Shown piece by piece: positions 3,362 through 15,187 of a stretch of 20,000 nucleotides of DNA. The DNA lies in NCBI GenBank assembly GCA_021432655.1, contig MU271194.1, forward strand, positions 60,412 through 80,411, given 5' to 3'. The translations under genes were made by a program, and so were the position numbers. Below the pieces are notes generated by a model. That model had not been told where the DNA came from. It searched no databases and was given only the letters and a program-made list of their open reading frames with translations. Position 1 is the first letter of the stretch. Every line of letters starts with the position of its first letter. This DNA is from Atractiella rhizophila. Lineage: Eukaryota.

Positions 3362-4943
3362 TCAAAGACAGGTCAAACTAATCCCAAGTGCGAAACACAT
3401 TTCTTTCAACTGAGTGTCGGCCATGCTGCTAAAAGCCTCATTGAAACCGGCACACGTCCACAGGTCAGACCGTTTCAGCCGGATGATTCGAAGTTTTCTG
3501 CTTCTTTGACGTTCGATGAGATCCATCAACTGGCCGATAGTATTCTTGATTGGCTGATAAGCAGTTTTCTGACATCTTTCCATCGTCATCCTGTCGGCTG
3601 CGAAATGAAACTCTTCAAGAGTGGGTGGAAAGAATTCAGGGAGGTGGAAGCTAGGTAGATCCAATCGTCGCAAGTTGAAACTTGTTGACATTGACAAAAC
3701 GATGCTCAATGTATCCTCGATATGGCCAAAGCTGCCTGAAGAACGTAGTTCGAAAGTCTCCAGGTGCTGGCATCGTGAAAGTAACATCTTGATGATATCA
3801 GGTCCAGGCTTCGAGTTGTAAGGAATCCCAAGGGCAAGAGATGACAAGTTTAGATCAGGAATTCGCTCGAGCAGTTTCAAGAAATTCAAAGCGAAGTCCC
3901 AATTATGGACGATATAAAGAAACCGCAGGTTTCGAAGTTTTAACAGCCATGAGAGTGACACTTCGCTCGCCAATAATGCCGTCACTGTGTTGATTTTCCG
4001 GCTCCTTATGTCTAAGCTGAGACTAGAGAGCGCCTGTGTCCATTCAAGACTATTGAATAATGCCTCAGCGGAATCCCACCCGATAGAATAAGATGTCAAA
4101 GCAAAACTGCGGAGATTCCTCGCCGCCAAAAGACCTTGTTTCACCAGCGAGCACGTCCAAAACGGAACATCATGGGTTGTGAGCTCAACATTTTCAACAT
4201 TTGGGCAAAAGAGGAGAACGTGCCCGAAATAAAAAGTCTCTATGATGCCGGAACCAGACCCGTGATGGCAGTAACTGCGAAAGCGTATGGACTTCAGGTT
4301 ATCTCGCACTGAAGATAAATGTTGTGCCCGACTGTGAGATAACCAGCGGTAGGCCTTGCGCGCGTCAAATGCGCTTGTGCACATATCTAGCGCTATCTGG
4401 ACCTGCAATGGGAGTTAGTTTAAAGTTGAGGGAAGGAGGACGTACAATTGGGAACAGGTACCTAGATAGGGTCAATAGAGAAGATATTTCCATCCGAGTG
4501 TAGGTGAATCGAAGATTGGAGAAGATTTCAAGCAGAATTTCAGGTGGCAATGAAGACAAGGTCAACAATTTTTGTCGTCTTCCAACACCAATCCACTCTT
4601 CTCCATAATTCCCCACAGACGCGGTATGTTTCTCCCGTAAAGCTTGTACGTGAAGCCTATTGGATTGTCCTAGCTTTAAATCCTGCAGGATGCTGTCAAG
4701 CCATAGTGAGTCTAGTAAGCAATACATCTTGATCACGATGCCATACCGAGATGCATTGAGCGTGAATCCAAACGAATTTGAGGAGCGGCAGCTCAGGTGG
4801 TCAAACACCGAAGCAATAAACTTCGACAGTTTGATTTCGTCGTCTGAGTTATTGAATTCGACCCGAGACATGAACTTGATGACCCAATTTTCGATGAGCT
4901 CATGAAGCTCTTGTTTCGCTTCATCGATTATATCCCAAGTCAT
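3362..4943 (-). CDS. F-box domain protein with LRR/RNI-like repeats (~512 aa, 2 exons)
   Basis: F-box motif LSSLPPEILLEIFSNL...LLTLSRYLFPI. A 43-nt intron at 4403-4445 (GTACGT...CTAAC...CAG) joins the two ORFs in frame. Downstream LxxLxL repeats include CPNVENVEL, NLRSFAL, KLRNLRFLYI, CQHLETFEL and NLRRLDL. Confidence 0.85.
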
Positions 4944-5556
4944 TTTATGCTGTACCCATGAACTTCAACATCAGCGCATCAGCGCCGACTAAACCTTAAA
5001 CTGCATGCACTCTTATCGTAGTACAGTTCCTGTTGCGCGTTCCTGTACTTATTTGGAGCAGAAGCGTACGCAAGTTGAGTAGAAAACAAGGAATTTATAT
5101 CAAAAAGTAACAACATTATATCAGGCCATCATATAAGAACGATACGACAGCCTACTCGTCTTAGCTTTCGTTCATACTCCATTTTATTTTCTTCTTTAAT
5201 CTCAATATAAGAATATAGTGAGTTCACATATGTCTCAACATGTTTTAAATCAGCTGTGGTAGTAAGAACATTGCTACACCAAGGAGCGCGCGAGGACTGC
5301 CTCGACCGTCTCATTGCACAACTCCATTTATCACAAATTCAGAGGAATGGATCTCACCTTCACCCAAAAATATTCCCACAATAAGTAACTTCGTAGCTTC
5401 GCATTCAAATTTACTCTTTAAGGTCGATCACGTCCCACGGCACGTGCCGCATTTCTCATTTCACATGTGCACAAGCAGAAGCAAGCAAAGCATCAGAAGC
5501 TGCGACCAGTTGAAACAGGGCAACGACGCAACGACCTTCTTTCCCTCGCCATACCC

Positions 5557-8500: not shown

Positions 8501-10322
8501 AGATGCGAAGGGTGAGGAGATTAGAAGAGCGTATATTCGAAGGTGTAGAATCGTCCATCCAGAGTAAGTTGTCTGCCTCGCATTTGTCTTTATTGGATGG
8601 TATTTGCAAGGAGATATGTATGTAAACATGGGCATCGAGGTCACCATTGAAGAGAAGAACGGTGGCACTGGCACATATTGAGAGGAAATGGAGTGAAGGG
8701 CTTTGTTGCAGCAGCGCCATGCATTAGTGGCTGGAGAACAACAACCTGGTCCTGCGTTTGTTCCCACGTTCTCTCCATGTCATTTCACATGATATTGTGA
8801 CAACATTGCCCGTTCCTTTGTACGATTCATTGGAGACGAAGCTTGATTGGCCCAAGCGAAGGGTGGGTGACGAAACGGATTATCGCGCGCTTCTTTGTGA
8901 TCAATGCAAGCACCGCTTCATGGTTTCCAGTGTAATGTCAATGAACAAGAAGAAAGCAGCTGTTTCCCAAGGGAAATGGTCATGGACTCTGTGCTACCGT
9001 GTTGATACACACGATGATATTACTGTTCCTGGTGTGCTCAGGTATCAACCTTTTGTCTGTCCAACACCTGCTTCAGGAAGCTGAAGGATGCTAAAGACGA
9101 TATCGGATGGGTTATGATCCTTGCGGTAGATTCTCTGTCCTGCAGGCGTTTGTATCCACTGCGTGAAAGCAGGGCCGGGAAGAGGCACAAAGAATCTCTG
9201 ATTCTTCTGAATCTCATCCGTTACGCTTTTTTGGCAGTCCAAGCTGCCTCCTAATCCTGACCTACCAAAATCCATACTTTGCAATTGGTAGTCGAGATGG
9301 CCCTCAAATGTAGCGATAGGCGCTGACGCCAGTCGTCTCAATTGAGGTGCATTTATCATGGCCTCTTTCTGTTAAAGCGACAGTCACGGATTGAATCGGT
9401 CACATATAAAACCAACCGAGGAATTGGGCACACTCTGTAAACGCTCAGATGTAATTGACGAGCGTGATTATACCTTGACGCTGTCTTATGGACCGAAATT
9501 CTATTGAACTCATTCTTAACTGATATCCCGGCGATCAGTAAATTCCCAACCTACCCCGCAGCGACGTCAGCCTTTCAGAAGCTTTCTTTCGCATACGAAA
9601 CACTCTCCAAGCCTTCTTCGAGGCGGTTTTACGACCTCTCGCCCCATTCGCCCTGCAATCCCAGCGCAGACTGTCATACCAGAGGAGAGGACACTTTTAA
9701 CGGCGTCTTGGGACAAATATGGCGCGAGATGATATTAGAGGGCGATTTTGAGATGGTCAGAGCTTTAGTTCGTAAGTTTTTCCTTCGTTACAAGCCATTC
9801 GACTGAAGGAATTCTCAGGTGCACTGAATGAGGGAAACCCCGCGCTGAACATTGGAGAAGAGGCGATTGAGAGTCTGGAAGGTGCTTTTCGGAGAGTGAG
9901 GGACATGATATTGTGTATGTCACCCTCCCCTCCCGCTTCCATGAAAACACCACTGAGGACGGATTTTGATAATAGCTGGTCAAAAATACCTACGCATCGT
10001 GCGATTTGAGCTCATCCGTCTGTACGAAATTCAACACAGTCTGCGTCAACTTTCCTACTTTAACGTTACCGGCCGACTACGTCTGACACTGCAAATGGCG
10101 CGCGTCACGCTGTCCATACCGATGGTGTGTCCTCTTCGCACACAATCGTTCCCCATGATTGATCTTTTGGGACAGGCGATAGACAAGGCTATGAAGGAGA
10201 ACGATGATTCGGATGATAGTGACGATGGGGAGAAGAATGCGAGGGGTTTGCTAGGAAAGAGAACGGCGGGTCTCTTGACTATGGCTGTTGGTGTTTTGGA
10301 AAAGGGAGAAAAAATAATTTAG
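5557..10322 (+). CDS. DnaJ (J-domain) protein gene, disrupted or rearranged by internal triplication
   Basis: J-domain DLYNVLGVKRDAKSEEIRRAYIRRCRIVHP|D KFPTYPAATSAFQKLSFAYETLSKPSSRRFYD, with the HPD motif completed across a phase-2 intron. The native ATG (5557) is only in copy 1. The C-terminal exons (from 9819, 9976 and about 10176 to TAG 10320-10322) follow only copy 3. Confidence 0.85.
5604..7060 (+). repeat. Tandem repeat unit 1 (exon1 3' part, intron 5799-6775, exon2 6776-7008, intron 7009-7055, 5 nt of exon3)
   Basis: Direct sequence similarity to units 2 and 3. Period to the next unit is 1457 nt. Confidence 0.95.
7061..8368 (+). repeat. Tandem repeat unit 2 (3'-truncated within exon2; intron 7256-8240)
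   Basis: Starts TTTATCGCCTGACGCAC and ends ...TGCAATCCCAG-TA. Length 1308 nt. Confidence 0.95.
8369..9823 (+). repeat. Tandem repeat unit 3 (intron 8564-9538), continuous with the unique 3' exons
   Basis: Same start sequence as units 1 and 2. Continues into exon3 (GTGCACTGAATGAG...). Confidence 0.95.
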
Positions 10323-10503
10323 ACGGCATCTGCAGTGTTATAATAATACGGAATCGTTGTAGCTTCAGGGTTTTCTGGACTGTTTTATATTGGATCAAAA
10401 GCCAAAACTTACTTTGCATTTTTGTGTCTGTTAGCATTGCATTGGTAATATTGGATACCCTTATGGTACAACAGCATGGACTGGATACAGTTGACCGCCA
10501 AAA

Positions 10504-13500
10504 TTAATCGTCATCAAGTTGCGTTAAGTCGATAAAAACGGGATTTGTTCGCCCGCTGCCGCCAATGTCAATAAGTCCCTCGTCTTCGCCTTTAACCAGG
10601 AAACCATCGTCTCTGGCAAACTTTTCCCACTCGTCCGCGAGACTCTTTTCTGCCACCCTCTCCGCCTGAATAAACATATTCATCCTAGTCTCACACCAGG
10701 TCTTTACGGGCATGAAGGGTCGCGACTTTGCTTTCCTCCCTGTCAGAGCTAGAATTTGATCGTTCTCCTCGACTGCTATGGAAGGTGAAGGATAAAATCT
10801 TCCTGCTATAGACGTTATAGGGAGAGTGTGCTGCTTCCCAGCAGGGGTGAGAGGAAAGAAAGTATGCTCGGGTGGAGGAGGAGGAAAGAGATCTTGTGGA
10901 GGAGGAAGATGACAATCTTGCGTCGGTCGAATGTCGTAAACCGTCCCAGATACTTTAATCTGCTTTGCTTCTGGGTCTAAGAAGATGGCATCAAGCTTCA
11001 GAATGAGACCATTAGAATACAAGTGTGGTTTGAATTCAAAAGCTGTGGTTGAAGATAGGTCCCATCGCGGCCGGAACTTCAAGCGAACGAGCTCGCCAAC
11101 CCATATCTTCTCTGCCCCGTACCACATGCCTTGGAAAAACTTCGATGGGATAGTTTCTTTCACCCGATCTGACGGCACACTCTGAACAGACGCAAGAGAC
11201 TGTCCTTTGTTTACTACGTCGTAAGGATCAAAGAGGTGGAAGAGGCGACTAGTATTGGTGCCGATGGAAAGGGCGAGAAGATAAGGGAGATGGGCATCCT
11301 TCAGGCTCTGCAATTGTCGTATCACAGGTCGTTGATGCTTCGCGCTAGGGTCAGCGATCCACGGTACAGCATGCGAGGGCCCATAGTCGACATTTTTCTC
11401 CGCCAGCAGGCGTTGATAAGGTTGCGCAAGCCATGGTAGAAGTAACGAGCCGTGGACCGATTCTACGGTGTCGGTCCCAACCAGGAGCATTACCGTGAAA
11501 ACGTATTCTCCTTTCACTTTGATCTCCTGCGAACTACCATAGACTGTTGACGGTTCAAGGTGCGCTATGGCTTTCCACTTTCTCTCCTTCACAATTGCTG
11601 GCCAATAACTGATCTCAAGGTCTCCTTCTCGAAAAGGAATCTGCAACCGTAACCACACAAGCTCGAAGGGTCGAAAAGTCGGGCTGAAACCTTCTCTACG
11701 CCAGTCTAAATCCTTAATTCGTTCCAGCGAGACAAAAGGGCCAGGGTAAAGGTCGAACTCCTCCTTTGGTGGCACGTAGACAGCGAAACTTTCTTCGACT
11801 TGGACACGTTTCCTCTTGCGCCGTGCTGGAACATTGTTGCTGAGAACCGAACCCAGTGCTACAGTTCGAGGGCTTTCCTCCAGACCAAGTTGGCGATTGA
11901 CTTCGCGCTGAAGCTTCTTGCCCGCGCAATACTTGCATTCACAAATCTTGATGGTACCTGGTGGTCGATGCGTAGCAAGCCAATAAAGATGTGGAGCAAA
12001 CTCGTTTGCTGAACGGAACTTTGGAATCTTTTTTGGACCTGTAACAAAATAATTGAACGCCAGAAAGGAGTAGGGTAAGGGACTCACCGAAGAGGTAAAC
12101 ATCACGACGATCTTTCTGCGTACTGCTCCCCATCTCTTTGACATGTTCAAAGAGTTTGTATCCAGGTGGCCACTCTACCGTCCATTGCCGATTCTCGTCT
12201 ACAGCCCCATTGATGACTATGGATGGGAGCATGAGAAGGCTCACCAAGCTTCAACAAGCGGGCGAGCTCGTTACCTAACTTGTTTTTCCAAGTTGTCTCC
12301 CTTTTCAAACCTTCGAGCGGTCTATGCCAATCAATCAACCCGTTCCTATCTCGCCTTTCGGTCGTATCTGTTGGCCACATGTGGTCCGTCCCATCAGAAT
12401 TCCTGACGATAAGTATGCAACGGTGGCTCTCGTCATCGACGATTGTGGTCGTAAACAGTTCTTCATCGTCGTTGACTTGGTTTATCAATCGATCTGTGGA
12501 AGGATGTGCACGGGCGGGTAGGGGGGCGATCAAGCGAGGCTGATCATTGTCCGTCTCCAACTCATCTTCTTCAGAGGTATCCTTGTTGACAAGTGGTTTT
12601 TCCTCTGACTGATCTAACTGCATCGCAGCTAAGCTCTCAGCTTCAGTCTCCGTCGGCTCCTCTGACGCCCCACTCTTGTCCTGTCTCGCTTCGACATGGG
12701 GCCAATTGGTGTCTGCACCGCTGAATCCATCGGTAGAGGGGTGTGACGCAGGATGCTGGTTGTTAGAGGTTGAAGCGCTCGCATCGGGGAGGCCAGGCTT
12801 CGATGAACGTAGCGGTGCGGAAGGATTATCATCCTGGTTTGCTGCTGCAGCTCCAGCACCTGAGAGCTGGCTGAAAGAGTTGAGGCGTGCGTTAGATTGT
12901 CCTCCGGTCGATTTTCGGCATGTAGAAGCCAATTTCCTATGGCGCGGGACGGTTGATGGGTCAATAACAAGAGCACGGGGAACTGGGGCACTTTGGTGTG
13001 ACAAGTTGGTGGAGTCCCGGAGCCAGGACATTGCACCTGCAGATTTTGCCGCCAGGGTAGGCAGCGAGATGTTATCCGCTCTGGAAGCTAATTGTGCTTC
13101 TCTGTTTGTCCCCCCTCCCTCACTTAAAATCGAAGTCGTAGCTTCCTGCGGATGGGAAGCATCGTGCGAATTGGATGATGACGAAACTTTTCCTGTAGCC
13201 AACTCGTTCGCTTTTGGTTGTATTCGATATGTGACGGTCCTTTCATTCGGTTCTTGGCGTGACGGGGAAGGGTCAGTACGGTGAGGGTCCACATCCATGT
13301 TCGCAGGAGGACGCTGCGACATGGTTGTAGAGAACCCTAGAAGCTGTTGAGCGCTCTGGCTGCGCCTCGATCCCCCCGAGAGCAGCATTTGCTTCGCCCT
13401 TAGCATTTGGCGGCGCTCACCTGCAGCGCCAGGTGGGACTGGTGGCTGACGAATTGAATCACTGGCAGTGGCTGGTTCGTCGGAGGGTACGTCTGGACGG

Positions 13501-14785
13501 TTGGCAGAGTCATCGGTGCATTTGGTGAGTGAAGAAGACGTGGGAGATTCTCTGGAAGACGACGCGCTGGGATCGCTGCAGGAAGAGTTAGGAGCGTTAA
13601 ATGACACCGTTGATGTTCTTCTCATGGAGGGAACACCCTATTCATGATTCATGTCTCTCAGTATTGCTCTCTTGGAAATACGAATAGGCGTCTACACACC
13701 GCAGGAAGCTGCCTCTCCTTCCTTTCCCTCTCCCGCTTCGCTCGAAAACCTTCCAATGAATTTTCCGATGCGCTTGCTGCAGGCGTACCACCTCTTATTT
13801 GGTCTGCAGCGCTCACCTCTATCGTCGCCGCGCCACTTTTTCCTTCAGCAGTGACTTCTTTCTTCTTCCATCGCGAGAGTAGGTATCTATCGAAACGTGC
13901 CTGTGCCTTCGCGAGTGTCCTTTCTGCCTCCTTCGCGCTATGTTCAGCCGCCGACTTTATCATCCTCGCCATCTCCATTTGATTACTCAGCGTCTCCCTT
14001 TCAGCTTCAAGGGTTTGTAGACTGAGTTCCGTAAGTTTAAGCTTCGCATCTGGCATGCTACCATCATCCGTCGATGTCCTCTCCTGCTTGTCAAACAGAT
14101 TTAGCAACGGTGGATCCTTAACCATGGACCTCCTTCCCTGATTGCTCTCTCCGTCCTCATTGTCGGAAAGGGCCCGTCCTTTTCCCTTCCAGCGACTCTC
14201 AATAGAAGTCGAGGCCGAATGCTCATGGCTCGGTCCACCACCACTAGGGTAGCCATCAAGAGCATTCATAGAGATCTTCTTCGGTGCGGGAACAATAGCG
14301 AGTTCGTCTATGTCCTCATCGTCCACATTCGGAGAAGTGTGAGCATGATGCGCAAGGAATTCCAAGAGTGTGGAAGACTGAGGAAGCGAAGTGGAAGTCA
14401 AAGGATCCGAGAAGGAAGATGGATTTCGAGGGTTTTGTGATGAAGACGCTCGAGAGGAAACTGACTGGAAGAGAGTCGGACGTATCTGAGGGTGCACGGG
14501 ATGGTGCCACTTGATGGCAGAGGTCGTCGTCGTATCTGGTAGCGTATGTAAAGTAGAACTTGCTGGGCTTGAAGTCTTGGAGGAAAGAGGAGGACGAGTA
14601 GTGCCAGATCTCGGAGCTCCTCTCGAGGAATATGTGGGTGTCGCGGCTTGCGCTGGCTCATTCAAAGAAGATGTTGACCCAGACTCATATGAGACATCGG
14701 CTCCCCCGGTTCTAGATATAGTCCCCTGTCGAGAGAGATTGGATCGTACATGCGACGAGCTCGTCGATTCAGTGGGGTTACTCAT
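10504..14785 (-). CDS. clr2: Cryptic loci regulator 2 (Clr2)-like heterochromatin/silencing protein with long low-complexity N-terminal extension (~1374 aa, 4 exons)
   Basis: Introns at 13638-13699, 12199-12244 and 12039-12087 join four ORF pieces in frame (4125 nt). Clr2 N-terminal-domain motifs: SDG..WP, WKNKLG, PPGYKLFEH, RRDVYLFG, KFRSANEFAPHLYWL, CECKYC. C-terminal-domain motif: FQGMWYGAEKIWVGELVRLK...IAGRFY. Confidence 0.85.
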
Positions 14786-15187
14786 GCTTGTGGAACTCTG
14801 TTGGTTTGAAGATTGCTCAGTTGATGTTCTACTAAACGCAAGTGGGAGTCAGCATCTACTCGTTATTCATCGAACAAAGATGCAACAGCAGTCGGAGGGA
14901 GTAAGGAAAGAACGGACGCAGGACTTATTGCAGAATGTCTCGAATCAGGCATTGAGCTTTCCTGCCACATGTACCGACTATGATTCACCAGTTGCACTAA
15001 GCGATCGACCTGCCCTATCGTCCTAAAGGTGAGGAACTGAGGAACTGAGCTGAGAATTCTACAATGGCATCAAATGGTGCAGTTAAATGCGGGATAATTA
15101 CGCGTACATTGGATAAGAAAGAGCTACACGCAGTAGAAATGTCTAAATCTATATGAAAGGCAGCTGTAAAACATGCCTGACTTGGAA

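Follow-up and report, generated by a model that had tools for sequence, protein, structure and literature searches.

H3K9-like mimics on heterochromatin factors are already known in animals, and the specificities of H3K9 writers and readers have been described (articles marked "in part" are cited from partial text). DIM-5, a fungal H3K9 methyltransferase, needs only H3 residues R8-G12/13; its activity in vitro is not significantly affected by A7M and is inhibited by phosphorylation of S10 (PMC3248561, in part). SUV39H1/2 recognise RKST, and SUV39H2 reads R8-G12 and is blocked by phosphorylation of S10 or T11 (PMC8303541, in part). Among readers, Cbx chromodomains absolutely require Ala in position -2, where the pocket fits "nothing larger" (PMC3013012, in part), and MPP8 has a "strict requirement" for Ala there (PMC7618375, in part). 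Clr2 of Schizosaccharomyces pombe, a subunit of the SHREC complex, carries three silencing motifs, C2SM1-3, comprising P137/Y140/L142, R170/F175/H178/L182 and G374-A375-E376 (PMC3903592, in part). No description of an H3K9-like mimic on Clr2 or SHREC was found in the literature searched, and the available part of one review shows "histone mimic" only in its reference list (PMC10135481, in part). Here, a 20,000-nucleotide stretch of Atractiella rhizophila contig MU271194.1 (hereafter the window; positions are counted from its first letter) was analyzed for a gene encoding an H3K9-like peptide, T-C-R-K-S-T-G-G. The available evidence supports a single Clr2-family protein of 1407 amino acids that contains the motif and is split by the public annotation. 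The likeness to H3 is, on balance, probably fortuitous, a match in a Ser/Thr/Arg/Ala/Pro-rich disordered region rather than a mimic tied to the H3K9 machinery.

Structure and identity of the Clr2-family gene

The initial annotation had described the protein as Clr2-like, and profile searches bore this out: both Clr2 Pfam domains were detected above their curated cut-offs in the frame at 10504-12174 (minus strand), namely PF16761 (Clr2_transil; 37.8 bits, cut-off 27, profile positions 28-68) and PF10383 (Clr2 domain; 36.5 bits, cut-off 25, residues 346-431 of the 556-aa frame). S. pombe Clr2 (5IKJ_A) was the sole PDB sequence matched (E 7.4e-4). The conserved residues of C2SM1-3, read from the translations, were all present in the order PPGYKL, FRSANEFAPHLYWL and YGAEKIW, and the C2SM2 and C2SM3 stretches were aligned to the corresponding S. 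pombe residues in the 5IKJ_A comparison. A nuclear-localisation-like cluster, RRKRKR, lies at residues 970-975. Membership of the gene in the Clr2 family is supported by these similarities; membership of the protein in a SHREC-like complex is hypothetical.

In the public record the motif and the Clr2 domains are separated. A protein search with the motif exon returned one match at 100% identity, a 794-aa "hypothetical protein" of A. rhizophila (Pucciniomycotina, Atractiellomycetes; BT69DRAFT_174120) that contains the motif, has no Pfam domain and ends ...DDEEL|YRQEF-stop just before the Clr2 part. For the Clr2 exon, the only 100%-identical match in a 50%-identity representative library was a 69-aa fragment.

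Exon boundaries were examined against contigs of run X1. The kind of this run is not on record; it was taken as cDNA-like because its contigs lack three introns at GT..AG borders, and it is uninformative on expression level and transcript ends. X1 covered all 30 depth bins. A 1951-nt X1 contig matched 11217-12036, skipped 49 nt, matched 12086-12198, skipped 46 nt and then ran unbroken over 12245-13256. Both skips end in CT..AC on the plus strand, that is, GT..AG on the minus strand, and the long frame stays open into the Clr2 exons. The 396-codon frame upstream is attached through a third joint (13636 to 13699, 62 nt), in agreement with the public model. The assembled exons encode a 1407-aa protein with four GT..AG introns, in which RHRK occupies residues 627-630, R-K-S-T-G-G residues 636-641 and the Clr2 region begins at approximately residue 860. 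The features of the gene, in transcript order, were as follows.

14918..14970, minus strand: exon 1, with the start codon of the public model; its junction lacks X1 confirmation
14917-14832, minus strand: first intron of the public model; disagrees with the X1 joint
13700..14831, minus strand: exon 2, a Ser/Thr-rich N-terminal part and a charged helical stretch
13699-13638, minus strand: intron of 62 nt, GT..AG, joining exon 2 to exon 3
12245..13637, minus strand: exon 3, the motif exon, one open frame with most of the disordered extension
12412..12455, minus strand: 44-nt gap treated as an intron by the public 794-aa model; not placeable on GT..AG boundaries and unspliced in X1
12398-12246, minus strand: conserved pre-domain at the 3' end of exon 3, common to other Pucciniomycotina Clr2 proteins
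12199..12244, minus strand: intron of 46 nt, GT..AG, removed in the X1 contig
12088..12198, minus strand: exon 4, first half of Clr2_transil (profile positions 5-31), with a P..Y.L of C2SM1 type
12039..12087, minus strand: intron of 49 nt, GT..AG, removed in the X1 contig
10504..12038, minus strand: exon 5 including the stop codon, with the second half of Clr2_transil (to ~11926), RRKRKR and PF10383 (~11139-10882)

The initial annotation had named, as an outcome that would count against it, an exon lying outside the Clr2 transcript. The X1 contig is unbroken from 13256 to 12245 and is then spliced in frame to the Clr2 exons, so this objection falls away. If the public annotation were correct, the motif would belong to a separate 794-aa protein ending before the Clr2 domains, and hence to no Clr2 protein at all. 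This is extremely improbable. In its favor stand the NCBI model itself, BT69DRAFT_174120, with its terminal ...DDEELYRQEF, and the nature of X1, which is not on record as RNA and in which a contig spanning two genes would not alone prove a single transcript. Against this, the model requires the 44-nt gap, which cannot be placed on GT..AG boundaries, and the X1 contig reads through that gap and removes two canonical introns in frame. Its TGA stop codon is destroyed in the X1 allele by a change (12396 A>C) that is synonymous in the long frame. Moreover, hhalign placed the last 51 residues of the motif exon, past the model's gap, on the pre-domain conserved in ten other Clr2 proteins (probability 78%, E 1.8e-5), and exon 4 alone supplies Clr2_transil profile positions 5-31 (20.8 bits, E 6.8e-4), which are missing from the downstream frame.

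Further observations were made on the gene and its surroundings. Another X1 joint, from 14825 to 14954, spans 128 nt with non-canonical ends (GT..TT on the plus strand) and possible unknown letters between, which makes the 5' exon and start codon provisional. X1 contig depth at 10300-10466 was 179, as compared with ~36-40 over the Clr2 gene; depth is a poor measure here, and the difference suggests a separate, more abundant transcript immediately downstream. The species has a second Clr2-family gene (P0004; BT69DRAFT_1281344, partial, 594 aa), which is 36% identical in the domains and lacks the motif. A PxVxL-type HP1 chromoshadow motif was also sought; its one match (PFVSL, residue 997) was discarded, the relatives reading G-A-Y-V-N-R at the by-eye equivalent position of a ten-sequence alignment.

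The H3K9-like motif and its disordered setting

T-C-R-K-S-T-G-G is encoded on the minus strand (reverse complement ACA TGC CGA AAA TCG ACC GGA GGA) within a 496-codon open frame at 12147-13637. The identity of seven of eight residues with H3 residues 6-13 (TARKSTGG), as claimed by the initial annotation, was reproduced, the sole mismatch lying at the second position, where Cys replaces Ala. In frame, the surrounding peptide reads DPSTVPRHRKLASTCRKSTGGQSNARLNSFSQLS; the local peptide was also read as ...VPRHRKLASTCRKSTGGQSNARLNSF... Across all six frames of the window this was the only match to TARKSTGG at 6/8 or better. Residues of the motif and its neighbor are placed as follows.

12933..12944, minus strand: RHRK, residues 627-630, five residues upstream of the motif
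12900..12923, minus strand: TCRKSTGG, residues 634-641 of the 1407-aa model
12920-12918, minus strand: codon of Cys635, the -2 position
12914-12912, minus strand: codon of the candidate Lys637
12911-12906, minus strand: codons of Ser638 and Thr639

The four residues RHRK match histone H4 R17-H18-R19-K20 exactly, and they also coincide with the AutoN motif of ISWI quoted in PMC5305211 (in part). When a 34-aa peptide was compared with all PDB sequences by phmmer, one non-significant match (cyanovirin, E 4.1) and no histone H3 was returned, the likeness to H3 being limited to the 8-mer and too short for HMMER. No Pfam family was found in the remaining frames or on the opposite strand across the motif (12613-13284, plus; 12629-13087, minus). 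Elsewhere in the window, a 199-codon frame at 4365-4964 (minus strand) gave a sub-threshold F-box-like match (PF12937, 20.0 bits, cut-off 24.3), beyond which nothing was found by Pfam in the other long open reading frames.

The motif had also been assigned to a disordered N-terminal extension, and this was supported by charge-hydropathy analysis, in which eight of nine 100-aa windows in residues 1-900 lay on the disordered side of the line versus none of five in residues 901-1400. Residues 1-859 contain 15.7% Ser, 7.7% Pro and 2.9% Phe, Trp and Tyr combined. For the 794-aa public protein, the ESM Atlas gives a model with a mean pLDDT of 0.42 and a pTM of 0.20, and the protein's look-alikes in the same resource (best feature score 0.82, TM <=0.20) fell below the tool's own bar.

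Searches for relatives of the extension with the motif-exon protein retrieved, among longer proteins, only the organism's own model, and none of similar length. None was found among shorter proteins (search words from residues 160-320 around the motif) or in metagenome contigs, and the extension could not be matched significantly to the paralogue P0004 (best E 0.088). Scanning metagenomes with the exon of the Clr2 domain likewise gave no match. Comparison of the window with X1 over 12245-13256 showed non-synonymous changes in 10 codons, synonymous changes in 2 and an in-frame insertion of 6 nt. The changes cluster at 13061-13225, where nine of the 10 changed codons are non-synonymous and where the insertion also lies (behind 13100), a pattern that points to a second allele or strain in which this part of the extension evolves freely. 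X1 has the motif in the same form as the window; this is little informative, since a divergence of ~1.4% predicts only 0.3 changes in 24 nt. Taken together, the extension is a young, lineage-specific, fast-evolving and intrinsically disordered arm.

Conservation of the motif among Clr2 orthologues, which the initial annotation had put forward as a check, was not detected at long range. At E<=1e-3, a representative search yielded 263 Clr2-family proteins, of which the best 150 (149 non-self) were examined. These are distant: the best-scoring non-self match is 36% identical and none exceeds 48% over the matched stretches, named relatives including Microbotryomycetes spp., Puccinia sorghi, Rhodosporidiobolus nylandii and Leucosporidium creatinivorum. 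RKSTGG, RKSTG and KSTGG were absent from all 149, and [AC]RK[ST] occurred in 11 at scattered positions. When near-duplicate cluster members were included, none of 166 Clr2-family proteins (117,941 residues, counted in 165) had a 7/8 match. The closest was TPRASTGG in P0031 (6/8), which lacks the Lys. TGRASTGA in P0007 was considered as a second H3-like word and set aside, as it sits within the Clr2_transil domain itself. An alignment of ten proteins related to the Rhodosporidiobolus protein showed, in every one, a basic patch of KKKR type and, after it, R-x-S/T; that Arg is followed by Lys in none. The recurrent family feature is a basic cluster plus Ser/Thr, and not an H3K9-like lysine. In the same ten sequences (alignment columns ~240-300), a near-invariant Y-x-P-P-P-L-P-H-Y-T-V stands ~20 residues past the basic patch and ahead of Clr2_transil; the A. 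rhizophila protein has no Pfam match at this stretch.

Explanations of the likeness to H3

We favor a fortuitous match, in which a lineage-specific, fast-evolving disordered arm would have produced an H3-like 8-mer by chance and TCRKSTGG would serve at most as a generic basic or phospho-acceptor patch. This reading is preferred because the extension has no detectable relative, the species' own paralogue included, and evolves freely between the two alleles; because the motif is absent from the Clr2-family relatives examined, ten of which have a basic patch and R-x-S/T with no Lys after the Arg; because the one mismatch, Cys at -2, falls on the residue that is irreplaceable for chromodomain readers; and because the motif came from a scan of very many windows, with 0.25-0.5 chance matches expected per 6-million-residue fungal proteome under either composition. 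For a 20-kb window in six frames, 9.5e-4 matches at 7/8 or better are expected. Several points weigh against it. The expectation of a 7/8 match in the 859-aa extension, calculated analytically from its own composition, is 7e-5 (of 200,000 composition-preserving shuffles 5 had such a match, an undercount, since the script required an intact RKST first). All residues equivalent to H3 R8-G13 are present (R636-K637-S638-T639-G640-G641), and the match is located in a heterochromatin-pathway protein. Absence from orthologues only 36-48% identical or less is weak evidence against a lineage-specific linear motif. Finally, RHRK beside the H3-like motif nudges the odds toward mimicry without establishing it, the chance of any H3 or H4 tail 4-mer within ~12 residues being very roughly 0.02 by a post-hoc estimate from composition. 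The match is thus improbable for the Clr2 extension and unremarkable for a proteome, and the notable part is where it fell. The sequence, reading frame, gene structure, family and disorder are demonstrated; that the peptide lacks a mimic function is inferred.

The initial annotation had proposed that the Lys is methylated by Clr4/DIM-5 and read by HP1-type chromodomains. The peptide's sole mismatch to H3 is the residue that readers cannot spare, and the two steps therefore part: methylation of Lys637 by a Clr4/DIM-5-type enzyme fits published specificity and is chemically plausible, whereas reading is disfavored by Cys635, which stands where the A-R-K-S/T core of the G9a/GLP/ATF7IP/SETDB1 type has Ala, if animal chromodomain rules extend to an Atractiella HP1, as we infer. 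A mimic of the writer's substrate only is unlikely, being the foremost of the alternatives to a chance match. Lys637 would be a true substrate or pseudosubstrate of a putative Clr4/DIM-5-type methyltransferase, engaging its H3-binding groove through R-K-S-T-G-G. The enzyme would thereby be tethered or tuned beside the Clr2 (SHREC-like) deacetylase/remodeller module, with no HP1-type reading owing to Cys at -2, and phosphorylation of Ser638 or Thr639 would block recognition of Lys637. All DIM-5 determinants (R8-G12/G13) are kept and A7M is tolerated by that enzyme in vitro (PMC3248561, in part); the RKST read by SUV39H1/2 and the R8-G12 read by SUV39H2, with its block by phospho-S10/T11, point the same way (PMC8303541, in part). 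The motif lies in an accessible disordered region, a match in the Clr2 extension has a low chance probability, and precedents exist in the Clr4 pseudosubstrate/automethylation loops (K455/K472) and the H3K9-like motifs of G9a/GLP, SETDB1 and ATF7IP (PMC10135481, PMC9768651 and PMC7618375, in part). Conservation of the motif is not demonstrable, however, and the target review names only Clr4 itself and Mlo3 as non-histone substrates of Clr4 (PMC9768651). The full proposal, in which Lys637 is methylated, bound by HP1-type chromodomains and switched at Ser638 as in G9a/GLP, is very unlikely. It shares all the support for a substrate mimic, Thr at -3 fits the T/V preference of the HP1 class (PMC3013012, in part) and G9a/GLP offers an Aurora-B switch (PMC9768651), but neither MPP8 nor any Cbx chromodomain tested dispensed with Ala at -2, which is present in every validated H3K9-like ligand listed (PMC3013012 and PMC7618375, in part), and -4 is Ser where the Cbx3 consensus has Q/N (PMC3013012, in part).

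Two further accounts take in the neighboring RHRK, and both are improbable. In one, the segment is an ordinary linear motif that resembles H3 by accident: RHRK...RK would serve as an auxiliary patch for nuclear localisation or DNA/RNA contact, and R-K-S-T would be a putative basophilic-kinase-type site (Thr639 having R at -3 and K at -2, and Ser638 having R at -2). The KKKR-type patch and R-x-S/T in the N-terminal extensions of the ten Rhodosporidiobolus-protein relatives argue for it, since the basic cluster with Ser/Thr recurs and the Lys does not; against it, the protein already has the strong RRKRKR cluster, and the patch lies ~20 residues before the conserved region in the relatives versus ~190 in Atractiella, so that positional homology is not demonstrated. 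The other is a tandem "histone-tail cassette" in a fungal silencing complex, with RHRK (H4 17-20) followed five residues on by T-C-R-K-S-T-G-G (H3 6-13) as a mimic addressed to the writer. Its H3-like part would be a substrate or pseudosubstrate of the H3K9 methyltransferase, unreadable to HP1 with Cys at -2, and would serve the writer as a decoy or a tether, coupling or buffering it. Jointly with the H4-like patch, it might also influence the deacetylase/remodeller module of a SHREC-like complex, with phosphorylation at Ser638/Thr639 as the switch.

Should the match be due to chance, which is held more likely, what endures is a correction to the annotation: in A. rhizophila the Clr2 orthologue has 1407 aa and is split in the public record. 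As a caution, 7/8 histone-tail matches arise approximately once per two to four fungal proteomes. Methylation of Lys637, if it occurs, would make this the first SHREC-type subunit with an H3K9-like mimic and a rare natural case in which recognition by the writer (R-K-S-T-G-G kept) is separated from that by the reader (Ala at -2 lost), and would provide a useful probe of the coupling between methyltransferase and deacetylase/remodeller in fungal heterochromatin.

Comparison with known systems

The Atractiella protein shares with S. pombe Clr2 (SHREC subunit; PDB 5IKJ) both Pfam domains, the three silencing motifs (P..Y.L; R....F..H...L; G-A-E) and direct sequence similarity. The proteins differ in length, the solved S. 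pombe chain having 548 residues and the Atractiella protein 1407, of which 859 form the orphan disordered N-terminal extension.

The RHRK patch is comparable with ISWI AutoN (RHRK), which repeats H4 R17-K20 residue for residue and lies in a disordered regulatory region of a chromatin protein. AutoN lies within the remodeller itself and has mutational support, whereas the Atractiella RHRK is a candidate found by sequence; even for AutoN, the resemblance to H4 "may be purely coincidental", and simple mimicry was not borne out by structures (PMC5305211, in part).

In the Clr4 loop (K455/K472) and at SUV39H2 K392, lysines of flexible segments occupy the H3K9 groove of SUV39-family enzymes and are methylated (PMC10135481 and PMC9768651, in part), as is envisaged for Lys637. 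Those loops act in cis within the enzyme, whereas the Atractiella segment would act in trans and is much closer to H3.

The automethylated mimics of G9a/GLP, together with ATF7IP and SETDB1, likewise place an H3K9-like lysine within a disordered segment of a protein of the heterochromatin pathway, next to a Ser/Thr that could be a phospho-switch (PMC9768651, PMC7618375 and PMC3013012, in part). In the parts of these sources cited, their motifs have only A-R/x-K-S/T in common with H3, always with Ala at -2; the candidate Atractiella motif keeps the writer determinants R-K-S-T-G-G and has Cys at -2. The G9a/GLP, ATF7IP and SETDB1 motifs are animal and are carried by methyltransferases or their cofactors, whereas the Atractiella motif is carried by a fungal Clr2-family protein.

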